Source: Planctomycetia bacterium (GTDB lineage Bacteria > Planctomycetota > UBA1135 > UBA2386). From it: a stretch of DNA of 47,377 nt. Position numbers and translations under genes: made by a program. The DNA lies in the NCBI GenBank assembly GCA_005776365.1, contig SXPK01000181.1:1-47377 (forward strand), written 5' to 3'. The notes under the pieces are model-generated. The model saw nothing but the letters and a program-made list of their open reading frames with translations, was not told the DNA's origin and searched no databases. Positions 4,284 through 28,935 of the stretch are shown here, in pieces (the first letter of the stretch is position 1; each line of letters opens with the position of its first letter).

Positions 4284-4335
4284 GAGATCGCCTTGCGTCA
4301 CGGACGCCAGGGACAGGCAGTCTACGTAACTGCAC

Positions 4336-4406
4336 GCCGCCCCGAGCCCGAGGTCGTCAATCCGCTCGCGGCGCAGCTGGCGAAGCGCAACCTGCGGCAC
4401 AACTGA
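4336..4406 (+). pseudogene. tex: Short diverged fragment of the tex 3' end (last ~21 codons plus stop)
   Basis: Reads PEPEVVNPLAAQLAKRNLRHN*, versus [21 protein letters not shown] in the other copies. It is followed by the same gcgccgcggg block, then t-cgc-ttcgca as after copy 1. Confidence 0.7.
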
Positions 4407-4433
4407 GCGCCGCGGGTACGCATTCGCACTCCG

Positions 4434-6056
4434 TCACCGCAGCCAGAAGTCGCGCCGCGCGGTCCATACATCGAGGCCGGTCGCCGGATCCAGCACCAGC
4501 CACTGCACGGCAAAGCGACGGCCGCCGATCGTAGCGGGCAGCACCGGCAGGTCGAAGGCGGCATAGCCGCGGTCGATGCCGGACACGCCGGTCGTCTTTG
4601 CGCCGACGAAGTCCATCGGCACGAGCAGGGAACAGCCGGGGAAGCCGAATCCGTCGAGGCCGATGGGCAGGGACAGGCCACCCGTCGTCGTGGCGACGCC
4701 GTCGCCGAGGATGCACCACGCGAGCGCGCCCGGGGGTGCGTTCGCGATCTGCAGGCGGGAGCCGGTCGGCGTGGACCGGAAGCCGGGGACCATCGCGGTG
4801 CCGAGGTTGGCACAGGCGGAGCCGGACAGGGTGGAGCGGCGCGGTTCGCTGCGCCAAGCCTGGATCGTGCCAGCACCCTGTCCATAGTCGAGGAAAGTCA
4901 ATGCATGCACAGGGTGAGGGCTCCCCGGCTGGACTCCGAGTTCCGCCACGAACAAACCATAGTCGCCTTGCACCGGGAATCGACTCTGCTGCGTGTGGTG
5001 CAGGATAGCCCCGTCCCTCGACGAGATCACCTGCACTGCGCCCCAGACATATTGTTCGGGCTGGCATCCGGGACACGCAAACAGCACGTCGGGAATGCCA
5101 TCGAGATCCGCGTCGAACTTGGCGCTGACTGGCGAGCCAAGCTGGAAGTTCGGGTCCTGCCAGACTCGGATGATGGAGCCATCGGCCCCGGACCATGCGA
5201 CTGCAACCTGCCGTTGCGAGGCCACACTGTCGGCGTTGCTCGCCAAGTAGTCTGCGACGCCGTCCAGGTCGAGGTCTCCCGCCAGAGCGACGGTGCCACC
5301 GAGCAAGTCATAGGCTTGCAGGCCGGGATGGAATCGCAGCAGTGTCCCGGTTCGCCCCGAATACAGGAACGCCCCGCCTTCGGCTCTTGCCCCACCGATG
5401 GCGCCGACGAGGAAGTCCTCGCCACCGTCCCCATCTCGATCGCCGACGTTGGCGATGCTCTGGATCACCCAGCCGTGGACCGATGCCGGGATGACGTAGC
5501 GGAGCGCGCCGAGGTGATCGTAGGCGTAGAGGCTGGAATCGAAGGAGCGCGCCGTCGCGGCCAGGAGGTCACTCAGTCCGTCGCCATCGAGATCGATGCG
5601 TGGCTCCTTCGCGAAGCCGAACATGCCAGGGCCGGGCGGGAGAAGATTGAACAGTTCGATTCCCCGCCGGGGGGAGTAGACATGGATCACGAAGCTCGAT
5701 GACCATGTGTACTCGTCGTAGCCATCGCTGTCGAAATCACCGGCCCATTGCGGGTTGTCGATGCCCCAGAACAGCATGTGCTGATGGAGTTGGGATCCAT
5801 CGCGTCCCGACAGGATGCAGACGCTGATTTGCGTGACCGGGCCTTGGCCCGCGCTGCGGTAGGCAAGCAAGTCGCGATAACCGTCGCGGTCGTGATCGCC
5901 GAAGGCCGAGCATGCGTTGTAGCCGGAGTATGCGGCCGCCGGGATCTCCCAAATCATCTGTTGCCCCAGCAGAACTCCGGCCGGGAAACAATGCGTAATC
6001 AACCACCTCGACCAGTCCATGGCAACCGGCCTCCTCAGTTGACGATCTGGATCCAC
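4434..6056 (-). CDS. FG-GAP/VCBS repeat (integrin-alpha-like beta-propeller) protein with a C-terminal shared module
   Basis: Repeated Ca-binding-like loops: GDHDRDGYRDLL, GDFDSDGYDEY, DLDGDGLSDLL, GDRDGDGGEDFLVG, GDLDLDGVADYL, FDADLDGIPDVL. The start is uncertain (6056, or the Met at 6020). It overlaps or abuts the upstream gene end at 6035. Confidence 0.8.
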   Translation of the reverse strand: MDPDRQLRRPVAMDWSRWLITHCFPAGVLLGQQMIWEIPAAAYSGYNACSAFGDHDRDGYRDLLAYRSAGQGPVTQISVCILSGRDGSQLHQHMLFWGIDNPQWAGDFDSDGYDEYTWSSSFVIHVYSPRRGIELFNLLPPGPGMFGFAKEPRIDLDGDGLSDLLAATARSFDSSLYAYDHLGALRYVIPASVHGWVIQSIANVGDRDGDGGEDFLVGAIGGARAEGGAFLYSGRTGTLLRFHPGLQAYDLLGGTVALAGDLDLDGVADYLASNADSVASQRQVAVAWSGADGSIIRVWQDPNFQLGSPVSAKFDADLDGIPDVLFACPGCQPEQYVWGAVQVISSRDGAILHHTQQSRFPVQGDYGLFVAELGVQPGSPHPVHALTFLDYGQGAGTIQAWRSEPRRSTLSGSACANLGTAMVPGFRSTPTGSRLQIANAPPGALAWCILGDGVATTTGGLSLPIGLDGFGFPGCSLLVPMDFVGAKTTGVSGIDRGYAAFDLPVLPATIGGRRFAVQWLVLDPATGLDVWTARRDFWLR

Positions 6057-9894: not shown

Positions 9895-10086
9895 ACGCAA
9901 TGCGCGGAGCCCTGCAGTCCCGCGCATAGCAGCCAGACCCTCGCGATCCGCGGCACCCCGCGCCCTTCGCCAGCCCCCCCGCCGGGCAAGGTGCCCGAAA
10001 CCACAGAATCCGCGTGCTATCGCGTGCGCGCATGCAGGAACGGTCCTTCCCGGGGCAACCCAAGCCCAACCGAGAGACCGAACGCC

Positions 10087-11538
10087 ATGTCCACCGCCTC
10101 GATCCGCCTCCTCGCCCCCTTCGCCCTGTGCGCCGCCGCGGCAGCCCAGTTCCAAGAGGGCCTCATCACCTTCTCCGCGGCCGAGCAGACGCTGTCCGGC
10201 AGCGGCGGCACCGTGCTGCGCGCCCTGCGCCCCAACGAGACCAACGTCATCGAATGGGGCACCACCTCGGCATGCGCGACGCTGTCGGCCGAGAAGTGGG
10301 CGCCGCGCACCGCCTACGGCACGATGGCCGGTGACGAGAACGCGGACGGCCTGCTCAACAACGCGACGCTGTTCGGCTCCGTCGACGCGCTGGTCAGCAC
10401 GAGGAACGCGGGCGGATCCGGCTGGCAGAACCAACGCACGGTGTTCTGGTCGGTGTCGGCGCCGATGGGCAACGCGGTCAGCGCGCAGCCGTTCCGCCCC
10501 GGCGACGTCGCGCGCATCGTGCGCACGCCGCTCTTCATCGACGGCCAGGTCGAGCACTTCATGCGCATGGAGCAGTTCAACCAGGCGCTCGGACTGCCGC
10601 TCCTCACGCCGATCGACGTCGACGCGATCGCCTTCGACCCGCAGTTCGGCGTCTACTTCTCGCTCGACGCGGACATCGTCTGCAACACGGCCTGCGGGCC
10701 GATGCTGGTGCAGGATGGCGCGGTGGTCTGCGTGCCGCCGATGGCGCTGACCTACACGCCCGACATGCGCATCGCCGCCGTCGCGCCGAACAGCGCAATC
10801 GTCGTGCTGACCGAGCCGCAGATCGACGCCATGACGCTGAATGCCGGCGTCACCAATCGCTTCGGCGCGTGCCTGACGAACGCCATCGATCTCGAATCGC
10901 TCGAGTTCGACATGTCCTCGCCGGTGACGCCGTGGTTCGGCTGCACGGCCGGACTCGCAGTGTTCTCGACGCAACTGATCTTCTCGGTCGAGACCGGCAC
11001 CGGCGCCAGCCTGCTGACGACCAACGGCGGCGGACAGATCTGGAACGGCCCGTGCTCGCCGATGGGACGCCCCTGCGGCTCCGGCCCGACGCTCGGCATC
11101 CAATCCGGCGTCCGCCCCGTCAGCGGCAACGTCGGCTGCGTGAGCTACGTGAACGCGTTCCTGCTCGAGCACACGAACCGCTACGTGCTCGAACCGCAGA
11201 ACCACGTGCTGACCGTGTTCCCGGCTGGCGCGCCCGCGGGCTCGACCAACATCGACGTCGGCTCGCCGTTCCCCTTCAACTTCGTGTTCGTCGAAGTCGT
11301 CTCGCCGATCGTGCCCGCCTCGCTGCCGGCCTTCCCCTTCTCGCAGATGTTCTTCCCCGATCTGTATGCGACGAGCCTGACCTTCTACACGACGACGACG
11401 GCTGTCGGCGGCTTCGGCAGCTTCCCGATGCCGGCGATCCCGCCGGGGTTCAGCGGCAAGGTGCTGTTCCAGAGCGTCGGAATCTCGACTGCAGGAACGT
11501 TCGAACTGAGCACGCCGGCGCTCATCGACGTGATGTGA
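10087..11538 (+). CDS. Secreted hypothetical protein (483 aa) with the C-terminal shared module
   Basis: I chose the start at MSTASIRLLAPFALCAAAAAQ (signal peptide). No recognisable catalytic domain. The C-terminus (..FPMPAIPPGFSGKVLFQSVGISTAGTFELSTPALIDVM) resembles the tails of 4434..6056, 23896..25959 and 26086..28935. Confidence 0.75.
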   Translation: MSTASIRLLAPFALCAAAAAQFQEGLITFSAAEQTLSGSGGTVLRALRPNETNVIEWGTTSACATLSAEKWAPRTAYGTMAGDENADGLLNNATLFGSVDALVSTRNAGGSGWQNQRTVFWSVSAPMGNAVSAQPFRPGDVARIVRTPLFIDGQVEHFMRMEQFNQALGLPLLTPIDVDAIAFDPQFGVYFSLDADIVCNTACGPMLVQDGAVVCVPPMALTYTPDMRIAAVAPNSAIVVLTEPQIDAMTLNAGVTNRFGACLTNAIDLESLEFDMSSPVTPWFGCTAGLAVFSTQLIFSVETGTGASLLTTNGGGQIWNGPCSPMGRPCGSGPTLGIQSGVRPVSGNVGCVSYVNAFLLEHTNRYVLEPQNHVLTVFPAGAPAGSTNIDVGSPFPFNFVFVEVVSPIVPASLPAFPFSQMFFPDLYATSLTFYTTTTAVGGFGSFPMPAIPPGFSGKVLFQSVGISTAGTFELSTPALIDVM

Positions 11539-23895: not shown

Positions 23896-25959
23896 GTGAC
23901 TGAGTGCCGCTGCATTCGCGGGGCGAAGCTCCGATCGGAAGGACCGTGCAATGCAGCGGATACTCGATCAGTGCCTTACCAACCCACCTGCATTCTGCGG
24001 ATCGCCGCGCTGTCTGCGCTCTTCTCGGCCGCTGCCAGTGTGGGTGCCGCCCAATGCCAGGCATCGACCGCGCCCCAACGCATCGGGACTCCATTCGCAG
24101 GAACCATGTTCGAAGGCGCTGCACTGCCGCCGAACTACGGCGTGAGCCTCGATCCAGGCGTTGGGATTCGCTTCGACCTCGTCGCGGACGCGCCGATCGA
24201 AGTCATGAACATCGGCATCAATGTGCTCGGCGACGGCGGCAACTACGGAATGCCAGTTCCCAATCTGATCGGCGCGCCCAATGGAACGCTGGAAGTCTGG
24301 GTCGCGCCAAATCACAGCGTTCGCGAAGCCGCACTCTTCACCAACGTCAACTACCGGCACAACCCGCCAACCATGCCGCCGCTGCCGTGGACCTTGCTCA
24401 GCAACCAGGTCACGCACGTCTCCAACCTGGTGTGGTCCGACCCGGACACGCCTTCGACCGCGTCGTTCACGCCGCCGCTGTCGCTCGCCGCGGGCTCGTA
24501 TGCCGTCGTGTTGGTGGCAGTCCCGCGCGGGGGCGCCAGCATCCCTGGTGGAACTGGCGCCACTGCGAGGCCCGCGGACCGCATCCACCTCTTGTCCACC
24601 AATCTCGCGCAGGTGCCGGGACCCGCAAGCTTCGCAGACGGCGTTCTCTCGATTGCGAATGCAGGCGTACAGACGCCAGCCTTCGCTTCCACGAGCAAGG
24701 ACGCCACGAGCACGCCGCCGGTGCTGCCAAACTTCGAGCTCACCTACCGACTCGGCGCCAATGCTGCGGCACAGCAACGCTACGGCCTTGGCTGCTACGA
24801 CAGGAAGCACACGTTCTATGAGGGCTTCCTTGCGACGGGAACCGCGGGAGGAGCGACGATCGACCTCGCGCCTGGCAGCCTCGCGTTGCGCAAACTCGGC
24901 AACCGCTACTTCGTCGAAGGCGGCCAGAGCTCGTATCCACGCAACGGCTTCACGCCAGGATCGAGTTCGTGGTACCGGGTCAACCATCCCGCCACGCCGA
25001 CTCACGTCAACACCAGGGCGCCGGCAACGTCCGTCTGGGGCGATTGGGACGACGCGACATCGCAAGCCTATCCGCTGCCCTTCGCGTTCCCCTTCCCGGG
25101 CGACGCTGGAGTTCCAGCGACGGCAATCGTCATCGGCAGCAACGGCGCGATCTGGTTAGGCGGGGCTCAACCAACGACGCAACGATTTCTCGGCGACTAT
25201 CAAGGTTGGCTCGACGGACCGCCTTCGCTCGCGGCAGCTTACTTCGACCTGTATCCAGCCGATCGCTTCACGCTCTACGGCGGCGCAGGCGACATCTACA
25301 TCGACAGTGACGGCTCCAACTACGTGACGATCTCGTGGGTCGCAGTCACCGAGTATCCGAGCGGCGCGGCGACCGGAACACTCAACAGCTTCCAGCTGAC
25401 GCTGATGCCGAACGGCAATGCAGAGTTCACCTACGGCCGCATCCGCCACGGGGCGTCCGATCTCCTCGTCGGATTCACGCCTGGCAACGGCGCCGGTGAT
25501 CCCGGGTCAGGCTCGACGCCGCGGCGTGCCCCAGATCTCCGTTCTGGAATCGCCACCGGTGGTTTCCTCTCCGGCGATGGAGCTTCCCCCTCGCTGCTCC
25601 AACTCACGAGCCGCCCGAGAGTCGGCGCGCCGCTGGTATTCGACACCACCAACCTCGATGCGACCGCGGTCCTGAACATCACGCTCGTGTCGACGACGTC
25701 AGTGCCCGGCATCGACCTGGCGATGCTCGGAATGCGCGGCTGCGAAGCCAATGTGATGCTGCCGGAGATCGCTGCGTTCGCCCAGTTCGCGCAGAACCGA
25801 ACCGCGACCTGGCCCGCGCTCGCATCGATCCCAGCGATGTTCGCCGGCTTCGACTTGTTCGCGCAATCCGTGCAACTCTGCGCCGGCATGCCCGTGTCTT
25901 ACAACGCTGCCAACGTGCTCGTGTCCAACGGACTCTGCGTGCGGTTCGACCGCAACTGA
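23896..25959 (+). CDS. Secreted hypothetical protein (up to 687 aa) with the C-terminal shared module
   Basis: Signal peptide ILRIAALSALFSAAASVGAAQC. The likely real start is GTG 23971 (MPYQPTCILRIAAL..); 23896 is the maximal ORF. No known catalytic domain recognised. C-terminal 123 aa: ..LAMLGMRGCEANVML..FAGFDLFAQSVQL..VLVSNGLCVRFDRN. Confidence 0.75.
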   Translation: MTECRCIRGAKLRSEGPCNAADTRSVPYQPTCILRIAALSALFSAAASVGAAQCQASTAPQRIGTPFAGTMFEGAALPPNYGVSLDPGVGIRFDLVADAPIEVMNIGINVLGDGGNYGMPVPNLIGAPNGTLEVWVAPNHSVREAALFTNVNYRHNPPTMPPLPWTLLSNQVTHVSNLVWSDPDTPSTASFTPPLSLAAGSYAVVLVAVPRGGASIPGGTGATARPADRIHLLSTNLAQVPGPASFADGVLSIANAGVQTPAFASTSKDATSTPPVLPNFELTYRLGANAAAQQRYGLGCYDRKHTFYEGFLATGTAGGATIDLAPGSLALRKLGNRYFVEGGQSSYPRNGFTPGSSSWYRVNHPATPTHVNTRAPATSVWGDWDDATSQAYPLPFAFPFPGDAGVPATAIVIGSNGAIWLGGAQPTTQRFLGDYQGWLDGPPSLAAAYFDLYPADRFTLYGGAGDIYIDSDGSNYVTISWVAVTEYPSGAATGTLNSFQLTLMPNGNAEFTYGRIRHGASDLLVGFTPGNGAGDPGSGSTPRRAPDLRSGIATGGFLSGDGASPSLLQLTSRPRVGAPLVFDTTNLDATAVLNITLVSTTSVPGIDLAMLGMRGCEANVMLPEIAAFAQFAQNRTATWPALASIPAMFAGFDLFAQSVQLCAGMPVSYNAANVLVSNGLCVRFDRN

Positions 25960-26085: not shown

Positions 26086-28935
26086 ATGCTCCGCTCTATC
26101 CCTCAATTCGCGGGCGCCCTTATCGCGCTCGCTCTTTCTGCTTGCCTCCCTGCGCAAGCAGAGACCCAAATCGCGTTGCGCTTCGCGACATTCGATCCGC
26201 TGCTGGGAGAACCGCGCGTCAGCGACTTACTCACGGCAGCAATCGGCTCCCGGCTTCACATCGTTCAGTTCGCGGCCAAGCCGGATGAAGCTTCGCGACA
26301 GGCGGTGCGCGACGCTGGCGGTGAAATCGTCGGCTTCTTGCCGCACCGGGCCCACCTGGTGCGCATGGATGCTGCGATCGCCGCGCGCGTCGCCCGGCTT
26401 GCGAGCGTGCGTTGGGTCGGCGCCTACCACCCTGCGTATCGAATCGACCCGATGCTGCTGGCCAAGTTTGCGCAAACGAAGCAGCCCATTCTCTGCAACC
26501 TGGTCGTGGTCGACAAACGCTCCGACAAGCCCAAGCTGCTGCAACAACTGCGCGCACTCGGCATCGAGGTGACGCACGAACAGCCCGGCAGCCTGCTCGT
26601 GGAAGCGCGAATCCTCGGCGAGTCCCTGGCAGCCGTTGCTGGACTGGACGAAGTCGCATGGATCGACGAGTCGACGCCCATCGGCATCGACATGGACAAC
26701 GCCCGCAGCCAAGGTGGCGCCAACTACGTCGAGGCCGTCGCGGGCTATCGCGGTCAGGGCGTTCGCGGTCACGTTTACGAGGGCGTGCAGGACACGCATC
26801 CGGACTTCACCACGGCTCCGATTCCGATCATGAGCTGCGCGTCGCCAGACAATCACGGCCACGCCACCGCGGGCATCGTGTTCGGCAACGGCCAGAGCCA
26901 TGTGGGCGCCCGCGGCATGGCGCCGGAAGCAACGTCCTTCTACACGAACTACGCATGCGTGACCGGCGGCGCGTCGCGCTGGCAGGTCGTCGAGCAACTG
27001 ATCCGCACGCACGGAGTGATGTTCACGACCGCGTCATGGGGCAATGCGCTGACGACTTCCTACACGTCGATCACGGCGGACGCCGACGACATCGTCTTCG
27101 ATCACGGCATCGCTTGGACGCAGAGCCAGAGCAACAACGGCGACCGCCTGTCGCGTCCGCAGGCATGGGCCAAGAACGTGTTCTCGGTCGGCGGCGTGCG
27201 GCACTTCGACAACGTGGATCCGAGCGATGATTCGTGGAGCGGTGGCGGCAGCATCGGCCCGGCGACAGACGGTCGCATCAAGCCCGATCTGTGCTCCTAC
27301 TTCGACTCGGTTCGCTGCTCCGACCGCACGGGCATCGACGGCTACGATCCCGGCGACAGCACGGCGACCTTTGGCGGCACGTCAGCGGCAACGCCGATCG
27401 TCGCGGGCCACAACGCGATTGCGATCCAGATGTTCACTGACGGCCAGTTCGGGCCAGTGCGGGTTCCAGGAGGCACGCGTTTCCAGAACCGGCCGGAGTT
27501 CACCACGTTGAAGGCGCTTCAGGTCGCTTGCGCCAGTCCCTATGCGTTCACGGCCGCGAGCACCGACAACCGCCGCGAGCATCAAGGCTGGGGTCACCCC
27601 AACCTCCGCGCGATGTGGGACGACCGCGGCTTGATGCACATCGTCGATGAAGCGAAGCCGCTGCAGCAAGGCGAAGCGGTTCGCTATCTCGTTCAGGTCC
27701 AGCCAGGCCGCAACGAACTCAAGATCGCGATGACGTTCGCGGATCCAGCTGCCAACCCAGCCGCTGCGATCGCGCGCGTCAACGACCTCACGCTGCGCGT
27801 GATCGCGCCTGATGGCTCGGTCTATTGGGGCAACCACGGCCTCAAGTCGGGCAACGTGTCGCAGACCGGCGGCACTGGGGACGCAGTGGACACGATGGAA
27901 TGCGTGTTCGTGCCGCAGCCGATGGAAGGCGTGTGGAGCGTCGACGTAGTGGCCGCTCTCGTCATCGTCGACTCACACCCTGTGACTCCGGCGTTCGACG
28001 CAGACTTTGGACTCGTAGTCCGCGGCGCCACCTCGATCGGAAGCGGCAACCCGGGCACGGCCTCGGCCTACGGCAGCGGTTGCGCGGGCTCCACGCCTGG
28101 CCTCCCCGTGTCGTGCCTCACCCTCAACGACACATCGTCGAAGGCCAGCGTCGCCTTGCGACCTTCAGCGATCTACGCGTTCGAAATCACGGCGCCGACA
28201 ACGCTCGACGTCGTGGGCTTTGAGATCTACGCCCAGTCGACGACCGGGGCGATCCAGACTGCGCCGGCGCACATCTACTCTGCCGGACCCAATGGCGGAC
28301 CTGACTCGGAACTCGCTACCGGGCAGATCGCCTTCACACCAGGCGCGGATTGGACCCGTGCGACAGTCTCGCCGGTGACGATCTCCGCAGGGTCGACCTT
28401 CTATGTCGGCTTCAACAGCCTGGCTGTGCCGCCAACGGCCTACGACGCTTCGATCGGCGGAATCGACGTCGCTTACCATCGCTTCGAAGCCGGCGCATGG
28501 AGCGTACGGACCACAGGGCGCTTCGAATGGTGCATCCGCGTCATCTGCAGACCGGCGCACTCGCTCGTGCCCCAGTTGCGGGCCCTGGGAGTCACCGACG
28601 CAGGGCAATCGTTTGAACTCGCCATGACCGACGCGTTGTCGCTGTCGTTCGGCGGCATCGCCATCGGCATCTCTCGAACCAGCATGGGCTCCCTGCCGCT
28701 GCCGCTGCCGCTCGACGCGGTCGGCGCACCCGGATGCTCGATCCTCGCGGATCAGATCGTGGTCCGCACTGGATTCGTCGATGCAGCAGGGTCGTTCAAG
28801 CTGCCGCTCGCGATCCCGAACGATCCATGGTTCATCGGTTGGAACCTCTACCACCAAGGCGTCGTGTTGGATCTCACGGCCAACCTGCTCGGATTCGTGC
28901 TGACGAACGGCATCGCGGTGCAGATCGGCGGTTGA
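26086..28935 (+). CDS. Subtilisin/kexin-like S8 serine peptidase with N-terminal propeptide, P-domain-like region, extra beta-rich domain and the C-terminal shared module
   Basis: Signal peptide MLRSIPQFAGALIALALSACLPAQA. His motif NHGHATAGIV, kexin-type ASWG and Ser motif GGTSAATPIVAG. P-domain-like NDLTLRVIAPDGSVYWG..DTMECVFV..GVWSVDV. The Asp-motif position reads VYEGVQDTHPDF (see findings). Confidence 0.85.
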   Translation: MLRSIPQFAGALIALALSACLPAQAETQIALRFATFDPLLGEPRVSDLLTAAIGSRLHIVQFAAKPDEASRQAVRDAGGEIVGFLPHRAHLVRMDAAIAARVARLASVRWVGAYHPAYRIDPMLLAKFAQTKQPILCNLVVVDKRSDKPKLLQQLRALGIEVTHEQPGSLLVEARILGESLAAVAGLDEVAWIDESTPIGIDMDNARSQGGANYVEAVAGYRGQGVRGHVYEGVQDTHPDFTTAPIPIMSCASPDNHGHATAGIVFGNGQSHVGARGMAPEATSFYTNYACVTGGASRWQVVEQLIRTHGVMFTTASWGNALTTSYTSITADADDIVFDHGIAWTQSQSNNGDRLSRPQAWAKNVFSVGGVRHFDNVDPSDDSWSGGGSIGPATDGRIKPDLCSYFDSVRCSDRTGIDGYDPGDSTATFGGTSAATPIVAGHNAIAIQMFTDGQFGPVRVPGGTRFQNRPEFTTLKALQVACASPYAFTAASTDNRREHQGWGHPNLRAMWDDRGLMHIVDEAKPLQQGEAVRYLVQVQPGRNELKIAMTFADPAANPAAAIARVNDLTLRVIAPDGSVYWGNHGLKSGNVSQTGGTGDAVDTMECVFVPQPMEGVWSVDVVAALVIVDSHPVTPAFDADFGLVVRGATSIGSGNPGTASAYGSGCAGSTPGLPVSCLTLNDTSSKASVALRPSAIYAFEITAPTTLDVVGFEIYAQSTTGAIQTAPAHIYSAGPNGGPDSELATGQIAFTPGADWTRATVSPVTISAGSTFYVGFNSLAVPPTAYDASIGGIDVAYHRFEAGAWSVRTTGRFEWCIRVICRPAHSLVPQLRALGVTDAGQSFELAMTDALSLSFGGIAIGISRTSMGSLPLPLPLDAVGAPGCSILADQIVVRTGFVDAAGSFKLPLAIPNDPWFIGWNLYHQGVVLDLTANLLGFVLTNGIAVQIGG

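Follow-up and report, generated by a model that had tools for sequence, protein, structure and literature searches.

We describe here a C-terminal domain shared by three otherwise unrelated proteins encoded on a 47,377-nucleotide contig of a Planctomycetia bacterium (SXPK01000181.1, GenBank assembly GCA_005776365.1): an S8 (subtilisin-like) peptidase, a 687-residue protein and an FG-GAP repeat protein. The common tail of these proteins reflects homology and not composition, and it belongs to a very large domain family that is real and as yet without a name. The domain is probably an address label that exported proteins in one class of the Planctomycetota have in common, serving in surface docking or in sorting, and homologues of the same S8 protease in another family end in a dockerin-type module. 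Throughout, the window is the whole contig (C164 in our numbering) and G000 is the assembly from which it comes (3.66 Mb in 283 contigs, 65% complete); f- and G-codes denote families and genomes of the comparison set, f1 being the family to which G000 belongs. The features of the window are as follows.

26086 to 28935, plus strand: gene of the S8 (subtilisin-like) peptidase, 949 residues, with signal peptide, protease core and C-terminal domain; cargo
28498 to 28932, plus strand: C-terminal beta-sandwich domain of the S8 peptidase, residues 805-949; HMM E 1.3e-28
28546-28548, 28735-28737 and 28855-28857, plus strand: conserved residues Cys821, Cys884 and Gln924 of the S8 tail (alignments A2 and A4)
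23896 to 25959, plus strand: gene of the 687-residue exported protein, cargo, with a passenger of no Pfam family
25597 to 25956, plus strand: C-terminal domain of the 687-residue protein, single-Cys sub-type; HMM E 4.6e-14
4434 to 6056, minus strand: gene of the FG-GAP repeat protein, cargo; Pfam FG-GAP_3, E 1.9e-10
4437 to 4871, minus strand: C-terminal domain of the FG-GAP protein; HMM E 1.8e-13, BLASTP against the S8 tail E 1e-6

The shared tail, its boundaries and its predicted fold

A reading of the window from its sequence alone (the original prediction) had proposed that four proteins end in one module, and the motifs which it quoted do lie in the sequence where it had placed them. Three of the four proteins were retained. 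An iterated hidden Markov model (HMM), seeded with only the C-terminal 135 residues of the S8 protein and run over six-frame open reading frames (ORFs) of G000, picked up the tails of the 687-residue and FG-GAP proteins and 72 further ORFs, giving 75 after seven rounds, each of which still added a few. Since a model seeded from the S8 tail recovers the other two and so many further ORFs, the similarity is one of homology. The S8 and FG-GAP tails also aligned directly in BLASTP, and no direct pairwise match was found between the S8 and 687-residue tails; the latter reached E 6.3e-27 in a genome search with the profile of alignment A2 (23 tails), which itself contains the 687-residue sequence. 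Pfam names a passenger only in the 949-residue S8 protein (PF00082, Peptidase_S8, E 9.8e-13), the N-terminus of which is signal-peptide-like, and in the 540-residue FG-GAP protein. It gives no family for the 687-residue protein or the fourth protein (515 residues), nor for any of the four tails, and NCBIfam adds nothing further.

The fourth protein (9991-11538) was rejected as a carrier. Against the domain HMM with all filters off it gave E 60-80, and a profile of 14 tails of its homologues, from seven genomes, matched the domain profile with an hhalign probability of 0.7%. Only a short 'G..IP....G..FQ' stretch could be aligned, and this was the source of the first impression. The 515-residue protein belongs to a family of its own, of about 500 residues, which was found in nine of the 21 relatives searched and often as tandem pairs. 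The tail of that family (FPDxY ... GGF ... IP ... FQ ... LSTP) is kept within the family only.

In the FG-GAP protein the domain keeps both the upstream Cys and GC motifs described below, and covers positions 5-93 only of the 108 in the profile; unrelated residues stand in place of its last strand, and 13 non-matching residues precede the stop. None of the listed starts of this gene is followed by a recognisable signal peptide. Six nucleotides separate its stop codon (4434-4436, minus strand) from a remnant copy of the 3' end of tex (4300-4428), and the gene may have been damaged at both ends by rearrangements at a hotspot (window 4300-4436).

As first drawn the domain was about 110 residues long, beginning in the S8 gene at 28570. 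This position falls inside the domain, the true start of which is about 20 residues upstream. An upstream Cys, in the motif [FY]GxGCxGSxGxPxL, is found in 164 of 191 sequences, 16-21 residues before the profile start, and because this two-Cys arrangement is conserved the domain is better drawn at about 130 residues, from [FY]GxGCxGSxGxP to the end. In the S8 protein it finishes one residue ahead of the stop codon. Across A2 one Cys and one Gln are invariant, and the motifs are LGxS, PLPxDLxxxGxPGC, IPNDPxFxGxxxYxQ and NAxGxxxSNGxxxxG, the last of which finishes at the stop. In a wider set of 225 sequences the Gln is present in all but one (~100%), the Pro of 'IP' in 98% and the Cys in 91%. Both Cys and the Gln are invariant in A4 (30 sequences of 145-residue tails), which were picked so as to contain the upstream Cys motif. 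Of the G000 copies, 37 possess both Cys, 18 the second only, 11 the first only and nine neither. The 687-residue protein represents a sub-type that has a short loop, keeps one conserved Cys and lacks the upstream Cys motif. A disulfide between the two Cys may form where both occur, as most copies own a second Cys that could pair.

AlphaFold2, run on A2, predicted a seven-strand all-beta immunoglobulin (Ig)-like sandwich with a mean predicted local distance difference test score (pLDDT) of 95.5 over a 120-residue core. A 145-residue model kept this core and assigned low confidence to the opening 20 residues in the S8 copy, an atypical one with an insertion in the N-terminal ~20 residues of the domain. 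The PLPxDLxxxGxPGC and IPNDPxFxG stretches are placed between, or at the start of, predicted strands. The invariant Gln is probably buried, judging from the alternating hydrophobic residues on the same strand face. A Cys-Gln thioester or other cross-link was considered and not retained, given this probable burial and the second Cys present in most copies. The original prediction had anticipated a beta-rich module on unrelated exported cargo in a genome outside the Bacteroidota, and the HMM, the AlphaFold2 fold and the scan of passengers (below) agree with this. It had also pointed to the C-terminal domain (CTD) of the type IX secretion system (T9SS), and no T9SS CTD was among the top structural matches. 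Those that were returned are generic. The same seven-strand sandwich is found in Ig, FN3 and macroglobulin (MG) domains; the best VIA-align match was an alpha-2-macroglobulin MG domain (Z 8.8), and with identities of 5-18% and Z scores of 7-9, which is background, no functional inference can be drawn from them. The predicted fold thus says nothing about function.

That the module has no named family, as was first supposed, is borne out by the libraries. None of the 23 tails had a match in Pfam-A or NCBIfam even with the threshold relaxed to E 10, and hmmsearch with the A2 profile found nothing among PDB sequences at the same threshold. Foldseek against the PDB gave no match at E <= 0.001 (best 0.0095), and a wide VIA search returned only generic Ig, FN3 and macroglobulin rows at Z 7-9, the background level stated by the tool. 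In full-text literature searches no description of the domain was found, nor of the GC-type dockerin considered below; the 'planctosome' paper concerns cohesin/dockerin and lamin-tail domains and not the present domain (PMC6461901). New here are the two-Cys boundary, now extended, the internal copies, the finding that neither the S8 protease nor exosortase is co-distributed with the domain, and its exchange with the GC-type dockerin.

Carriers and taxonomic range

All 75 carriers in G000 have one copy of the domain, never in tandem. By a crude scan for hydrophobicity, 62 of them begin with a signal-peptide-like stretch, typically ending in Ala-Gln. Among the 23 carriers scanned for passengers we found S8, papain C1 and trypsin-like proteases and Kelch, FG-GAP, PKD, NIDO and PPC domains, and the single-Cys sub-type goes with NIDO-like passengers. 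Structural neighbours in the ESM Atlas (template modelling score 0.89-0.97 over the domain) are the C-termini of Planctomycetota clusters with a comparable range of passengers (S8, M36, CHRD, PPC, Kelch, PKD and RCC1), and a feature search of the same resource returned carriers only. The passenger of the 687-residue protein has one full-length paralogue and three partial matches inside G000; outside it none was found among the 201 phylum genomes sampled.

The module had been expected always to be C-terminal. This holds for most copies, 64 of the 75 (85%) finishing within nine residues of the stop, but not for the six (8%) that are internal. Four of these precede an FGE-sulfatase domain, one a glycine-rich domain, and one is N-terminal to Kelch repeats. 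Six further carriers have an extension of 35-45 residues after the domain and may form a sub-family with extra terminal strands.

C190:5018-6283, C274:3031-4290, C99:9711-10952 and C274:5509-7953 (L053-L056): carriers with the domain before a C-terminal FGE-sulfatase domain (PF03781, E 1e-29 to 5e-45)
C171:1002-2573, C11:6238-7542, C169:13126-14319, C143:2381-3886, C10:10068-11693 and C283:4367-5527: carriers with the 35-45-residue extension

Scanning public data as well as the genome with an HMM of the tail, as the original prediction had recommended, showed the extent of the family. Against 1.84 billion cluster representatives the profile matched 15,313 at E <= 0.001 and 8,151 at E <= 1e-10. 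Of the best 150 of these matches, 148 finish within seven residues of the C-terminus and 133 of those within two. Names attached to homologues at source include 'S8 family serine peptidase', 'PKD domain-containing protein' and 'hypothetical protein'. The domain is present in 30 of 31 close relatives, and 18 other genomes of f1 have from 49 to at least 145 matches each. It occurs in 91 of the 121 genomes sampled from the class, with copy numbers typical of each family: there has been mass expansion in f1, f5, f7 and f8, all 22 f9 genomes have one to five copies, and f10 genomes have 0-26, with no match in the f10 genera g190, g194 and g204. Carriers include three genomes that are complete or nearly so, G014, G322 and G022. 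Over the phylum it was found in 35 of the 201 genomes sampled, again consistently by family. The few carriers of the low-copy genomes G098 and G026 are not orthologous, being of M64/FG-GAP type in one and of sortilin/BNR type in the other.

Exchange of tails and the search for a partner

Comparison of the S8 protein with ten homologues (38-44% identity over about 620 residues) proved informative. Five of them, from f49 (L043-L047; genomes G069, G095 and G199; 38-40% identity), end in a dockerin-like repeat, and the present domain was not found in f49. All four of the f49 homologues scanned match the NCBIfam model NF041540, 'GC-type dockerin domain-anchored protein', at 38-45 bits (cut-off 29). 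Because homologues of the same protease end in the GC-type dockerin, the tail is to be regarded as an interchangeable C-terminal module. The f17 homologue stops directly after the protease, without a tail, and those of f41, f85, f19 and f53 have other unnamed tails. A first look at f49 genomes (3.3-3.6 Mb, one genus) gave at least 200 GC-type dockerin candidates in each, and all 28 that were scored passed. No NF041540 match was found in the four f1 genomes searched (G000 and three relatives), and in the phylum sample both modules occur together in one genome only, G192, with one dockerin match. In each of two lineages a few per cent of the exported proteins thus end in a C-terminal module of that lineage's own, and homologues of one protease bear whichever module their lineage has. 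Alternative anchors on a single cargo would look like this, and no other evidence obtained here speaks as strongly for an address or anchor role of the domain, as opposed to a part in what the passengers do. For the papain-like passenger one distant homologue was found, with no recognisable tail.

The protease core of the S8 protein (residues ~230-440) retains the catalytic His and Ser and the oxyanion Asn. Where the catalytic Asp would stand, this protein and three of its homologues (L042, L048 and L050) have Glu, and the other seven have Asp.

The presence of an S8 protease among the carriers had been taken as a hint that it belonged to the system, and a co-distributed processing enzyme had been proposed as something to look for. 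The first idea failed, and no such enzyme was found. S8 homologues are missing from the carriers G138, f26 and f68 and weak in f30, and strong ones occur in f17 and f49, two families in which no copy of the domain was found; a dedicated processing role was therefore rejected. The protease is cargo and not machinery, because its homologues are found in lineages with the domain and in lineages without it. Exosortase was likewise rejected as the partner. A gene for it is present in G000 (PF09721, E 1.7e-44; C119:8834-9586) and in f1, and none was found in the domain-free relative G021. Over the phylum sample, however, 87 of 201 genomes have an exosortase, many of them without the domain, and several carriers of the domain lack it. 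G000 also encodes at least one classical PEP-CTERM protein (C121:13424-13495) and ordinary PEP-CTERM proteins occur in f1, so that exosortase has classical substrates there. G000 thus holds a second, known C-terminal sorting system.

Other machinery was looked for by homology and by position. No SprA, PorV or Por_Secre_tail match was found in the 65% complete G000, and no SprA in five relatives that are 82-96% complete, the SprA and tail searches giving no positive control signal. C25 (the PorU family) was not found in G000, G014 or G138, only G072 being positive. Sortase (PF04203) was absent from G000 and four relatives, with control genomes positive. The gene neighbourhoods of carriers in G000 and in the low-copy genomes G098 and G026 disclosed no recurrent partner. 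The sole recurrent family among neighbours in G000 was rejected, being a large paralogous one with many members all over the genome (26 homologues for one of them); its members are probably Ser/Thr kinases, and one carrier neighbour in G098 has Pkinase and TPR domains. In G026 a gene on contig C26 (L041:1768-4170), lying 2 kb away from a carrier in this carrier-poor genome, matches Peptidase_C25 weakly and in part. It was not retained as a partner, since it is not conserved in G000, G014 and G138.

Docking, secretion and other readings

The resemblance to a sorting or anchoring signal that was first remarked on holds for position, copy number and range of cargo, all of which fit, and fails for the machinery, none of which was found. 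The closest parallel in layout is the type A T9SS CTD (TIGR04183 / PF18962), which likewise follows a Sec signal peptide and diverse passengers as one terminal Ig-like sandwich of about 100 residues, and which in Bacteroidota is carried by tens to hundreds of cargoes per genome, proteases included. It differs in that neither the four proteins nor, at E 10, the 23 tails match it in sequence. TIGR04183 had no match in the G000 genome, in a search in which no control genome was positive. The motifs are different, the present domain having two Cys and an invariant Gln; 8% of its copies are internal; the phylum is Planctomycetota; and genes for SprA, PorV and C25 were not found in G000. The GC-type dockerin resembles it in being a lineage-specific C-terminal module of hundreds of exported proteins per genome, S8 homologues among them, whereas in structure it is a 54-residue dockerin-like repeat ending in Gly-Cys, of different fold and with no sequence relation. 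PEP-CTERM proteins recognised by exosortase also carry a C-terminal tag in large numbers, but the present domain has no PEP motif, transmembrane helix or basic tail, and the tails gave no PF07589 match. An LPXTG/sortase system is disfavoured by the missing sortase gene.

The reading that we favour, and to which we give about an even chance, is that this Ig-like domain of some 130 residues is a docking tag which retains Sec-exported passengers on a shared component of the envelope. A passenger (a protease, a Kelch, FG-GAP or PKD propeller, a CHRD protein or another) would be exported through Sec by its N-terminal signal peptide, the folded C-terminal domain would dock onto one shared envelope component, and the passenger might thereby be held or displayed at the cell surface. 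Such a function would be like that for which the GC-type dockerin is named, and like that performed by T9SS CTDs in Bacteroidota. Docking is favoured because the domain is exchanged with a dockerin-type module, because internal and extended copies exist, and because no T9SS-type translocon was found. Several observations weigh on the other side. For the GC-type dockerin, too, a function has only been inferred, its name coming from NCBIfam, and no partner gene for the domain was found in the searches made. The structural matches are restricted to generic Ig, FN3 and macroglobulin domains (VIA-align Z 8.8 at best, Foldseek E >= 0.0095). If the Gln is buried, its conservation would suggest a need of folding and not a binding site. 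Twenty of the 75 G000 copies lack the Cys at profile position 44, and since 38 of them miss one or both Cys a disulfide is not essential.

A true secretion signal, moved with its cargo across the outer membrane by an as yet unrecognised translocon and then cleaved or swapped for an anchor as in T9SS, is a reading that we consider rather unlikely, though it is a serious rival. The arrangement of Sec signal peptide, diverse passengers and a terminal Ig-like domain of ~100-130 residues is that of T9SS cargo, there are very many cargoes per genome, and in 133 of the best 150 public matches the domain ends within two residues of the C-terminus. Against this stand the failure to find SprA, PorV and Por_Secre_tail in G000 and SprA in five relatives (with the limit on controls given above), the missing C25 in G000, G014 and G138, and the tail on homologous cargo, which is of dockerin type and hence a docking module rather than a translocation signal. 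The six internal copies, together with the six that bear a 35-45-residue extension, favour a docking domain over a strict secretion signal, because a folded docking domain tolerates an internal position. Such tolerance would also suit a ligand-binding or adhesion module resembling a carbohydrate-binding module (CBM) and tying secreted enzymes to an external substrate or particle instead of to the cell. The size of the beta-sandwich is CBM-like and the weak structural matches include CBM and glucan-binding domains, yet this explanation appears unlikely: the domain is single, never tandem and overwhelmingly terminal, its carriers are mostly proteases and propellers and not glycoside hydrolases, conservation falls on Pro, Gly, Leu, Asp, Asn, Cys and Gln, without an aromatic platform, and one ligand common to at least 100 carriers per genome would be unusual.

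It could also be argued that the domain has no common partner and is no more than a passive structural cap or an aid to folding, which duplication of genes in a fast-evolving secreted family has spread. The sub-types of the domain do track passenger types, single-Cys copies going with NIDO-like proteins, which suggests duplication of whole genes, and the probably buried Gln would suit a structural role. Nevertheless the passengers have unrelated folds, so that the domain has been shuffled onto many of them, its loop motifs are conserved across the whole class, and on the same cargo it is exchanged with another lineage-specific mass tag. We regard this explanation as very improbable.

Going beyond the docking tag that we favour, a broader proposal can be made only tentatively, and we think it somewhat doubtful. 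The domain might be the cargo signal of an undescribed sorting and display system specific to the Planctomycetota, in which a receptor or translocon would handle at least 100 exported proteins per cell. Such a system could be an independent counterpart of T9SS, replaced in a sister lineage by a dockerin-based one. The scale of the family gives the question some weight, in that the domain closes about 2-3% of all genes across a whole class of the phylum, and a Pfam or NCBIfam model of it would label at least 15,000 protein clusters. Planctomycetes appear to lack T9SS, which was not found here. As to how proteases and adhesin-like proteins reach the planctomycete cell surface in such numbers, the domain offers a concrete handle by which the partner may be found.

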